From: Eledone cirrhosa
Lineage: Eukaryota
Direction: 5' to 3'
NCBI GenBank assembly: GCA_964016885.1
Contig: CAXHJY010001371.1
Location: forward strand, 13,823-77,822
Length of the DNA: 64,000 nucleotides
The notes below the pieces were generated by a model, which searched no databases, had not been told where the DNA came from, and saw only the letters and a list, made by a program, of their open reading frames with translations. Positions 1 through 62,289 of the stretch are shown one piece after another (positions within the stretch are counted from its first letter, which is position 1; each line of letters opens with the position of its first letter). A program made the translations under genes and the position numbers.

Positions 1-123
1 ATATATATACATATATATATATATACATATATATATAAATACATATATATATACATATATATAAAATATTAAACAAATAATGAATAAAACAATGAAACAG
101 TTCCTTATATTAAACAAAAAAAG

Positions 124-278
124 TTCATTATTTAACGATCGTTTCTAGGATATATATGTGTTAGAATTGCCATGCATATTCAACAGATCTATGTACAAAA
201 TTATACAAAATTATACAAACTATCAAGATTAAATATACATACCAAACACACATATACGCCGTCTTCAGAAATAATGAA
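124..278 (-). ncRNA. Type I hammerhead ribozyme with long stem II (family A, inverted arm)
   Basis: Reverse complement of 6411-6565. Confidence 0.75.
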
Positions 279-660
279 ATATATTTATTGATAATAACAA
301 CAATTCAAAATTTCAGGTCCGTTTGGGAACAGAGTTCAAAATTGACCAATGAAAATACAAAAGGTTTTATGCAGTTTGGTGTGTGTATATACATGTAACC
401 AGCCCCGTACACATATTTATACAAAGATATATGCTCAACATGCATACGCATGCCAAAAAGATGCATGCAAATACAAAATTTCAAGGCTAATGTCTCTGTA
501 AGTTTATAATGCACAGATAAAATGCGTATAGACACATAAATATGAAATAAGTGTATACACATATTCTCATACTCACACATATCCGTACACTCACACACAC
601 GCGCGCGTATATGCATAAACATACACATAATTACGAACATACATACACACACACACCCCC

Positions 661-59749: not shown

Positions 59750-61755
59750 TTAGGGAGAAGTGTTTAGACGGGGTCCGTATTTGTTAATGAAGTAAGATTC
59801 CTTGCTGATGCGCTGGGTGTGGGTGGCATTATCTTTAAATTTGTAGAGGGGAAAGATTCTGAAGTTGGGATCATTTTGGGCGGCACAGGTATCAATGTGT
59901 TCACTCAGTGGTATTTTCCTGTATTCCCGTATTTTAATTTGGGATCTATGGACCGTCATGCGTTGGCGGAGGCTGTTTTTGGTCTGGCCTATGTATTGTT
60001 CTCGACAACCTGAGCAAGTTAATACATATATTAGATTTTCCGATGCACATGTGAAATTGTGTTTTACTATAAAACGTTGTCCATCTTTGAAATAGAATTC
60101 CGAACCCTCTATTAGGTTGATGCAAATGCCACAGTTGGGTCTATCGCATATTTTTACTGTGGGTTTTGTTATTGTGGTTGGCAGTACTTTGGCATGTGTT
60201 AGGATGTGTTTCATTGACTTGGATTGTCTTTTGCTCTTTATGATATCGTGTGTTCGTAGAATTTGTTTCATTCTATGGTCCTTTTTCAACACAGGGATGT
60301 TCTGGAGGATGGTGTCAAAGGCCTCATTGTTGAGAGGGTTGTGTGTGGAGATGTATGGAAGAGCTTTTAGTTTCGGTTGATTTACTTTAGGGTGTCTAAG
60401 GTCCTGGGTACTGAGTTTTAGGGCACGTTGGATTCCATTGTCAATTAGTGATGCAGGGTAGTCCCTGCCTATGAGTGTGTCCTTTAGTTCTTGTAGCCGT
60501 AAGTAGCAGATGTTTTTATTGGAGACTATAGTACAGATTCTCTTGGCTAAGTTGTAGGGAATATTAATTTTAACGTGTCTAGGGTGGCAAGAGTTGAAGG
60601 GGAGATATTGCTTGGAGTCTGTGGGCTTGTAGTATATGTCTGTTTCTATTTTTTTGTTATGGATCTTAATGAGGATGTCGGGGAAGGGGAGTTGTTGATG
60701 GCTGTATTCCATCGTGAAATTAATATTCGTGTTGAGCCCATTTATAAGGGTGTGAAATTCTTTAAGTTTTTCGATGTTTTCGTGCCAAAGGATGAAGCAG
60801 TCATCTAGATATCGCTTCCAGTTCCTTTCAATGTGTAAGTGGAGGGTGTTTCCAAATTTGTTTAGGACTTTAGTGTAGATGGTGATTTCCAGGTATCCCA
60901 TGACTAGGTTGGCATAAGTGGGGGCTGTTTTCGTTCCCATAGCGGTCCCAGATTTCTGCCTGTAGGGTTTGTTATTGAAAACGAAGTAATTGTTCTCCAA
61001 GATAAATTTGAGTCCCTCTATCACGAATTCTTTTTTGATGCGTTGTGGGAGTTCATTGTGGAAATTATCCAGCCAGAATTGGATAGCTTCTATTCCTAGG
61101 TTGTGGGGGATGTTGGAGTATAGGTTGACTACATCGAACGTCACTAGTAGGGTTTGTTCAGAAAGTGGCATATTAGGGAGGTGATTGAGCATATCTAGGT
61201 CGTCCCTTATATAGCTTTTGATGTGTTTGAGGAAGGGTTTGAGAAGGGTATCAATGAAGTTGCTAAGGCGGTGGGTTTCGCAAGCGGGGCCTGCTATTAT
61301 AGGTCTTAATTTGAGATCATTGGGTGGGGGGACATTGATGACTATGTTTGTGGCTTCCTTGCATGCCTTACTTATTGATTCGCTTTTATGTACTTTAGGG
61401 ATACCGTAGAAGAGGCTGGATTTTCTTGTGAAGTCTGTGATGAAGCTGAATTCCTTGTTAGTGAGTCCTTCTTTGTATTGGTTGATTAGAGTTTTTAGGT
61501 TTCTCATAATTTTCTGTTGATTGTAGTGTTCAGCCTTTTCGTAGTATGTTTCGTTTTCCAAAGTGGAGAGCGCTAAGTTGATATAGAATTCTGTATCCAT
61601 TAGGACTACTGTACTCCCTTTATCAGCCTCTTTAATTGTAATGGTTCTGTCGGTTTTTAATCTATTTAATTCTTCCCATTCTTTATTGTTGAGGTTTGGC
61701 TTGTGTTTTTGTCTGTGCAAGTGTTGGTAAGGGAAGTTTGTGATGTGACACAGAA
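59750..61755 (-). CDS. PLE RT + GIY-YIG (Neptune-like), 5'-truncated; the track's N-terminus is microsatellite
   Basis: NL...[63 protein letters not shown]-x4-CxxC linker, [20 protein letters not shown]. Confidence 0.92.
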
Positions 61756-61877
61756 TATATATATACATATATATACACATATATATACACATATATATAC
61801 ATATATATACATATATATACATGTACATATATATACATATATATATATATATATATACATATATATATATATATATA

Positions 61878-62289
61878 CAGTTTAGCGAGGTTTTTTATAT
61901 GAAATCGTGAGTCGAAACAAATATTGTTATACTTGGGGAGGGTCATATTTGTGTAATATTGCCAGAATTAATAACAGAACACACTCACTGTTTGGTTGGT
62001 TTTCGCTTCTCGATGTCTTTTATATCTGCGATCTTACTTACTCGGTCCTCAATGTTGCCATTGACTGACCGACGGTCAAAAATAATACAGATACAATATA
62101 GACACAAACACATATATATAGTTTACATAATTTACATAAATCTTTCGTTGCACATCTGCAACATCGTCAGTGGTGTTAGATCGCAGATATAAAAGACAGC
62201 GAGAAGCGAAAACCAACCAAACAGTGAGTGTGTTCTGTTATTAATTCTGGCAATATTACACAAATATGACCCTCCCCAAGTATAACAAT
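61878..62289. mobile_element. Family C fold-back fragment, copy 3 (tail-bearing arm 61878-62177, tail-less arm 62174-62289)
   Basis: 62174-62289 is the reverse complement of ~61923-62033. HHR-like motif at 62107-62177 on the minus strand. Confidence 0.78.

Follow-up and report, generated by a model that had tools for sequence, protein, structure and literature searches.

Inverted insertions of Penelope-like elements in Eledone cirrhosa pair one tailed with one tail-less 3′ end, and in Hydra-type families both ends lie next to copies of one motif

Penelope-like elements (PLEs) form the sister group of telomerase. The available texts on their insertions describe a tail on "one of the inverted pLTRs" (pseudo-long terminal repeats, pLTRs), for which self-priming was proposed (PMC3846280). 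That the tail is one-sided, that priming occurs at two sites and that both strands are extended has already been published (PMC8557442, PMC3846280, PMC11167929). A Poseidon protein from an anole cuts and extends both strands in vitro, its synthesis beginning at two internal RNA sites on either side of the tail (PMC11167929). Hammerhead ribozymes residing 100-700 bp apart on opposite strands, including a U3-A8 variant, were reported together with a proposal of circular templates (PMC4209133). According to PMC8557442, it is an open question how PLEs acquire their inverted ends and one-sided tails, and the in vitro work did not validate the steps that come later (PMC11167929). Here, we analyze a stretch of 64,000 nt from Eledone cirrhosa (contig CAXHJY010001371.1, positions 13,823 to 77,822), termed the window, for which an earlier note had proposed that fold-back insertions of six families (A-E and G) combine one arm carrying a 3′ tail with an inverted arm that stops just before it. 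This pairing rule is real and strict, in a known kind of element. The novelty which the note attached to the layout itself was overstated, as one-sided tail, two start sites and both-strand extension are in print. What the present analysis adds is a pairing that is nearly absolute, arms that are coupled to each other, and a clade-wide motif, doubled at the two sites, that did not figure in the earlier note. Neither a strict coupling of the tail-less (S) and the tailed (T) 3′ end nor the twin motif was found in the literature searched, while subscription papers on Drosophila Penelope and supplements may bear on novelty.

The window has a GC content of 25%, consists to about one half of (TA)n-type repeats and is situated on a 78-kb unplaced contig of a genome of 3.0 Gb. 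Families A-E and G are PLEs inserted in (TA)n and exhibit the layout of this group, i.e., a partial tandem or pLTR, an inverted 5′-truncated copy and a tail. Intact open reading frames (ORFs) for 830 and 844 amino acids occur in A and B, respectively, each with a YRDD and a C-terminal YIG..R..H motif, such that reverse transcriptase (RT) and GIY-YIG endonuclease are combined in one ORF as in endonuclease-positive PLEs. Pfam gave no match for these two ORFs, and RVT_1 plus GIY-YIG for another PLE ORF of the window (59750-61894). Judged by protein motifs, A, B, D and G appear to belong to the Hydra clade, which is defined by RW[K/R], DKT, CxCx5C and CxxC/CxH motifs, a hammerhead and insertion into (TA)n (PMC8557442, available text). 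RWRA/RWKA, DKT and CNCx5C were read in all four translations, CxxC..E..N..CxH is present in A, B and D, with the C-terminus of G lying outside the sequence seen, all four families are inserted in (TA)n, and a hammerhead motif is predicted by pattern in the pLTR of each. The Penelope/Poseidon clade is marked by GxKF and DKG and has no zinc finger in the linker, and the Neptune and Nematis clades have a Cx2-5CxxC linker before GIY-YIG. The family E protein features GLKF, DKG and YLDD among the residues read, and GLKF plus DKG suggest a Penelope/Poseidon-like affiliation, while a Cx4CxxC linker points to a Neptune/Nematis-like nature of family C. For the B protein, 991 homologues were obtained at E<=1e-20, the sole species-named one stemming from a cephalopod; among 120 listed homologues, DK[T/S] is present in 119 and CxCx5C in 113. 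The N-terminal ORF of family A occurs in at least 150 near-identical genome copies (99-100% identity), most in intact 830-aa frames, indicating a young family. A protein search of the same genome for other Hydra families returned family A only, and an Rfam scan of the raw window yielded nothing except microsatellite noise.

Fold-backs were mapped by self-BLAST after repeat masking and by direct reading of the sequence (Table 1). All insertions and tails listed in the earlier note were recovered at the same places within a few bases of TA ambiguity, and its statement that the tail-less arm stops ~50-80 nt past the hammerhead cleavage site agrees with measured distances of 73 (A), 56 (B), 49 (D), 56 (G) and 80 nt (E). 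The family E hammerhead is a U3-A8 core variant that a strict CTGANGA scan missed, and family C has a partial hammerhead core only. Recurrence of the stop point, also claimed, holds for the two family A insertions, whereas family C has its tail-less ends at 11244, 14169, 62289 and 63135, and those at 11244 and 14169 belong to one duplicated insertion (one mismatch, one indel, same junction) and are not independent. The far end of family C is ragged with several sub-sites.

With regard to the pairing rule, the E. cirrhosa genome was searched for each family with a segment common to both arm types, and 30 loci each were taken from the top 40 of 73-1161 candidates. A tail-containing A query contributed 30 extra loci, which are hence selected for the tail, 100 stretches of ten kb, out of 112 listed, were fetched for partnerless arms, and the window contig as well as its duplicate contig were excluded from the counts. 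In all six families the 3′ ends form two sharp peaks, S and T, as the earlier note had predicted, and just 13 of 400 arm matches stop outside the tail-less, tailed or read-through classes, some C and E matches representing related families. Mixed pairs had been predicted as well, and among outward pairs, called by proximity within 13 kb, 115 of 117 consist of one tail-less and one tailed arm, the remainder being one T+T and one S+S case. The latter is not a single insertion: TA runs and a nested element separate its two pieces. Some of the long pairs contain unexplained internal sequence, and gaps were mostly filled by family sequence where checked. Re-examination of 115 unpaired arms revealed four further S+T pairs, three of them with a mere stub of the tail end, and no same-class pair. 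Mixed pairs are also found in further families (F5, 2/2; F6, nine plus one with an atypical end; J, 2/2; M, 1/1). Many copies are single-armed with either end type and have their 5′ end joined directly to (TA)n, and others reside in tandem insertions exceeding 10 kb.

Assemblies are known to be at risk of error where palindromes occur in AT-rich repeats, and the window contig is small, unplaced and accompanied by a near-duplicate contig, all of which would suit an explanation of the fold-backs as chimeric-read or assembly artefacts. This explanation is largely refuted and its probability minimal. The arms differ by substitutions and by insertions in one arm only, and the ends are fixed across hundreds of loci. 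Furthermore, public short-read contigs from four runs and three studies, the best run possibly sharing its sample with this assembly, contain both E end junctions in three runs and the E S junction in the remaining run, a joint between opposite strands at the E 5′ hot spot (see below), and the B S junction in one of the four runs.

In the Hydra families, S and T are each located 1-6 nt 5′ of the same motif, NCTCY...GAGNNCT. In read-through copies of A, B, D and G, RCTC is present within a few bases of S and T and a matching TYGAGY follows downstream, the motif pairs occurring as ACTC/GAGT or GCTC/GAGC. The second motif copy in family A encloses ~105 nt of intron-like sequence. In locus L213 of this family, just 3′ of T, the enclosed sequence is AT-rich with the form GT...AG, and it may be a retained intron of the 5′ untranslated region (UTR). 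The motif was recorded first and then tested on further Hydra families, two of which have end peaks just 5′ of the motifs (F5, 6 S and 2 T of 10; F6, 23 S and 19 T of 52). An initial scan of metagenomes found nothing. A set of metagenome relatives was then confined to 51 of 77 loci, those aligned from near the protein start, and in the 200 nt before the ORF these contain 69 motifs as compared to a shuffle mean of 0.94 and a maximum of 5. Two copies 52-83 nt apart were present in 28 of the 51 loci, 3′ of the hammerhead where this is covered, and 15 of 22 downstream copies end at -3 to +7 nt from the motif, two of the seven misses being read-through tandems.

The outer motif position is G-C in 59, T-A in four and unpaired in six of the 69 motifs, and support for pairing is confined to this position because the search pattern itself prescribes the inner CTC/GAG. 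Rfam covariance models produced no match at E<=1 in six motif-bearing loci, not every family yielded both helices in minimum-energy folds, and a MAFFT alignment of 36 motif copies left the 5′ arm out of register. The twin motif likely folds into a helix and likely positions the enzyme at each start. All S and T junctions for which read-through sequence was seen exhibit 2-7 nt matching (TA)n. Priming set by TA complementarity alone was considered and rejected: longer TA runs 50-70 nt upstream of S are unused in D, E and G, and the end position is thus set by something else. Family E carries a different, weaker repeated word after both sites.

The two arms of a pair also correspond in their 5′ ends and in their sequence. 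The 5′ ends cluster at family-specific hot spots (relative to T: A, -348; D, ~-275; E, -216; G, -320). Of the pairs in families A, D, E and G, 26 have both arms ending at the hot spot, 33 have both extending beyond it and three combine the two behaviors, which amounts to 59 of 62 concordant pairs (Fisher P 5e-14) in a table that omits 24 further pairs with a shorter arm. Discordant subfamily alleles are rarer than expected in A (1 vs. 14.8), D (0 vs. 20.0), C (8 vs. 26.6), G (17 vs. 46.4) and, weakly, in E (41 vs. 54.9). For the internal array of family A, the partner arm was the most similar of 23 for 14 of 24 arms, and three low-scoring pairs have an arm truncated within the array. Shared alleles and arrays show one source copy; they favor, and do not prove, one RNA.

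On the basis of promoter-like motifs, the 5′ hot spots are probably transcription starts: family E has TATAAAA 30 nt upstream of its hot spot, family D TATAA followed by TCACT, and in families A and G TCA lies at the hot spot itself, in resemblance to the promoter consensus. An alternative identity of the A hot spot as a roadblock for reverse transcription was discarded, as 17 of 92 arms stop there at first passage and none of 23 at the second; for this comparison 30 A loci with the ORF start were used, 23 of which reach the upstream hot spot. The absence of second-passage stops argues that long arms originate from a template without that 5′ end, i.e., a circle or multimer, and counts against a simple linear transcript as their template. 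Hammerhead-cleaved linear RNA as the main template is not supported either, with only about three A ends near the cut site; one symmetric pair stops at the hammerhead cut site. Several B arms stop at one point about -1875 from T, possibly the start of a long 5′ UTR. Junctions of family C cluster at about -350 from T (window 11530-11583), beside AAAATGGCG. This sequence presumably resembles a YY1 site and may mark the transcription start of family C.

On balance, we consider it probable that a (TA)n target is cut on both strands and that each of them primes reverse transcription on a single RNA, at two fixed sites which in the Hydra families adjoin the motif. The earlier note had likewise invoked priming from both target ends at two sites. 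This remains the best reading; two-ended insertion is not obligatory, as many single-armed copies demonstrate. The 5′ UTR would comprise, in this order, the hammerhead, site S, motif 1, the tail, site T, motif 2 and the ATG. A protein dimer would bind both motif copies and its GIY-YIG nuclease would nick both (TA)n strands, whereupon each 3′-OH would anneal over 2-7 nt of AU at one of the sites, S or T, and then be extended. The T-primed copy would either displace the S-primed copy or stall, the latter giving rise to tail-only arms, and priming by one end alone would produce single-armed copies. Two classes of template are envisaged: linear RNA whose 5′ end is fixed and probably coincides with the transcription start would yield palindromes of 200-350 nt, and circular or multimeric RNA would yield kb-long arms and tandem units. 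Finally, end joining would connect the ends of the two complementary DNAs head to head, using microhomology in roughly every second case. Joining by microhomology, as suggested in the earlier note, finds agreement in 46 of 85 junctions that overlap by 1-23 nt; on the other hand, seven are blunt and 32 contain 1-60 extra bases. Junction microhomology is therefore common and not obligatory. For the Hydra clade we tentatively put forward a more detailed version, whose chances we rate slightly below even: tandem RNA helices in the 5′ UTR, present throughout the clade, would each dock one subunit of an RT dimer near the template start, one RNA would be copied onto both strands, the tail would correspond to the distance between the docking signals, and inverted insertions would be programmed. 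A two-copy complex prediction for the first 410 residues of the A protein, for which an alignment was not used, gave no answer, its score being zero.

Explanations of a different type have been offered that involve fold-back (PMC3846280, PMC8557442, available texts). If priming took place once, at T, and the product then folded back to prime itself or served as a DNA template, with a nuclease resolving the intermediate into the tail-less end, symmetric palindromes, identical arms and shared 5′ ends would be expected, and small palindromes are present at some junctions. Either arm can be the longer one, in agreement with the earlier note: among 85 resolved pairs it is the tail-less arm in 31 and the tailed arm in 26, and in 28 both are equal. 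The 28 fit fold-back, whereas a longer tail-less arm is impossible by this route and some tailed arms consist of the tail only, both of which argue against simple fold-back. Single-armed and tandem full-length copies end at S, and the existence of single-armed tail-less copies identifies S as a priming site on its own. Moreover, S is followed by the same motif as T, as expected of a second priming site, although it is conceivable that the motif serves as a signal for DNA cleavage instead. We regard an origin by fold-back as improbable.

Priming on one RNA, as preferred here, also has to be weighed against the use of two RNAs of one source copy, copied from the same two programmed sites and held by an asymmetric dimer. 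Two RNAs would permit long overlapping arms without strand displacement, would fit the near-even split of the longer arm, and transcripts of one locus would likewise share alleles. Extra reasons would be needed for the fixed S/T split between the RNAs (115/117) and for the same 5′ class of both (59/62). Among 114 tailed arms, 11 end at S or within the tail, a finding that counts against fold-back; six of the 114 stop at S, which suits blockage on one RNA. Use of two RNAs appears unlikely to us, while deserving more weight than fold-back.

Several points speak against priming on one RNA at motif-defined sites. The overlap between most arms spans hundreds to thousands of bases, such that a single-RNA template needs strand displacement, and where the tailed arm is the longer one it would have had to overtake the other arm. 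Shared alleles and array patterns indicate a common source copy, not a single molecule, and family B is uninformative in this respect, alleles within pairs equaling those between pairs and the partner being best in one of three cases. Motif NCTCY...GAGNNCT is lacking in E and C and so cannot account for the whole set of six families, what speaks for pairing in the helix is covariation at a single outer position, and the identification of transcription starts rests on promoter-like motifs. Sampling from the top 40 candidates is biased toward young copies, 30 of the A loci were preselected for the tail, and the T+T case, a palindrome of family D, is apparently genuine.

Table 1. Positions of PLE arms, tails and hammerhead motifs in the window. 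S, tail-less 3′ end; nt, nucleotides; aa, amino acids.
Feature	Position	Strand	Remarks
Family A insertion 1, inverted tail-less arm	61..591	-	S at 61; inverted relative to 6098-6628; 99.4% to 6098-6625 in inverted orientation, with a single mismatch in 528 nt
Family A insertion 1, 5′-truncated body and tailed pLTR	592..6762	+	ORF fragment 631-2883 with Hydra motifs DKT, CxCx5C, CxxC/CxH; internal microsatellite array
Family A hammerhead motif	6411..6565	+	predicted cut after 6555; 5′ hot spot of short arms ~6414
Family A tail	6629..6762	+	first motif copy ACTC (6633) ... TTGAGT (6708-6713), starting 4 nt past S
Family A insertion 2, long tailed arm	43161..46571	-	
Family A insertion 2, short tail-less arm	46572..46754	+	stop identical to that at 61
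Family B inverted tail-less arm, 3.4 kb	25550..28967	-	inverted relative to 30803-34250; 98.6% to 30803-34245
Family B tailed arm	28968..34345	+	844-aa Hydra-type ORF 29264-31798; hammerhead cut predicted after 34195
Family B tail	34251..34345	+	first motif copy GCTC...TTGAGC at 34260-34281
Family C fold-back, tail-less arm longer	11244..11641		duplicated at 14169-14565
Family C fold-back, tailed arm longer	61878..62289		tail 61878-61922
Family C single tail-less arm	63135..63258	-	
Family D tailed arm	48979..51733	-	tail 48979-49065, motif 49060-49040; repeat insertions 49139-49316 and 50217-50394; endonuclease ORF fragment 50947-51624
Family D tail-less arm	51734..51912	+	hammerhead cut predicted after 51863
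Family E palindrome	52153..52537		tail 52153-52214; U3-A8 hammerhead variant 52424-52461; both arms begin near 5′ hot spot
Family G palindrome	56561..57075		tail 56977-57073, motif 56981-57021; hammerhead cut predicted after 56920
Fifth Hydra family (F5), single arm	53461..54436	+	stops at tail-less site predicted by motif
Family I, single arm	16431..17304	+	stops at tail-less site; motif follows in read-through copy (L250)
Family J, single arm	22012..23122	-	stops at its tail-less site; genomic pairs as given in the text

The two repeat insertions in the D tailed arm are copies of a tRNA-like short repeat that we take to be a short interspersed nuclear element, and this repeat also often adjoins C ends. 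A C-related family (loci L094, L117, L260 and others) has 70 nt in common with the C end and stops ~15 nt further. Family A forms tandem runs of at least three units of 6.5-6.9 kb (G000:C1:126843731-126863937 and C1:183733218-183762644), one of which has a tailed and a tail-less end ~29 kb apart. The short hammerhead-bearing repeat at 23556-24265 (-), family M, consists of partial tandems of ~470 nt, is possibly non-autonomous and has two 3′ ends and one mixed pair. Other elements comprise an older D-like copy with an internal inversion (54745-56398) that abuts the end of another hammerhead family (56339-56398), a non-LTR (long terminal repeat) retrotransposon in (TA)n with Exo_endo_phos_2, RVT_1 and broken frames (37552-42486, -), and a 5′-truncated Penelope/Poseidon-like element with Pfam RVT_1 and GIY-YIG (59633-61755, -, extending to ~58600), whose 3′ end is cut off at the junction with an AP-endonuclease-type retroelement fragment (57607-58560). 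The near-duplicate contig (G000:C1004:30001-53401) matches the right part of the window with 97-100% identity, is devoid of a match to 53461-54434 and has an extra E fold-back nested in a TA run. It spans only part of the window and offers no empty site for D, E, G or C.

A counted pairing rule together with a conserved cis element makes the open mechanism of PLE insertion accessible to direct experiment, and the abundance of intact 830-aa frames provides a candidate active protein in family A. The writing of both strands from defined RNA signals bears on second-strand synthesis in target-primed insertion and, being carried out by a transposon, also on RNA-templated genome writing.

In twin priming of L1 elements, both target strands prime synthesis of complementary DNA on one RNA and an inversion results; the second site lies wherever the primer anneals, and the two parts hardly overlap. 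In the insertions studied here, in contrast, both sites are fixed and most arms overlap, such that the process resembles twin priming and the L1 pattern is not matched. Among PLEs, the insertions described in the available texts of PMC8557442 and PMC3846280 share partial tandems, an inverted 5′-truncated copy, a tail at one end and (TA)n targeting with those of E. cirrhosa. Published tails are, however, characterized by "often" or "optionally" and by lengths of 30-40 bp, as opposed to a counted pairing of 115/117, tails of 43-135 nt and a duplicated motif in the present case. Hydra units are 3.7-6.9 kb here and generally <3 kb in PMC8557442, the Hydra section of which makes no mention of a twin 5′-UTR motif. 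The closest biochemical counterpart is the anole Poseidon element PAc (PMC11167929), for which two internal starts bracket the tail, both strands are cut and extended, the RNA template is uncleaved, sequence 3′ of the starts is required and a dimer is predicted, all in agreement with our observations and proposals. In the text available for that study, no connection is drawn between the two sites and the two ends of a single inverted insertion, and the PAc sites reside within the ORF and lack homology to the target, while those of the Hydra families are located in the 5′ UTR and match the TA target over 2-7 nt.

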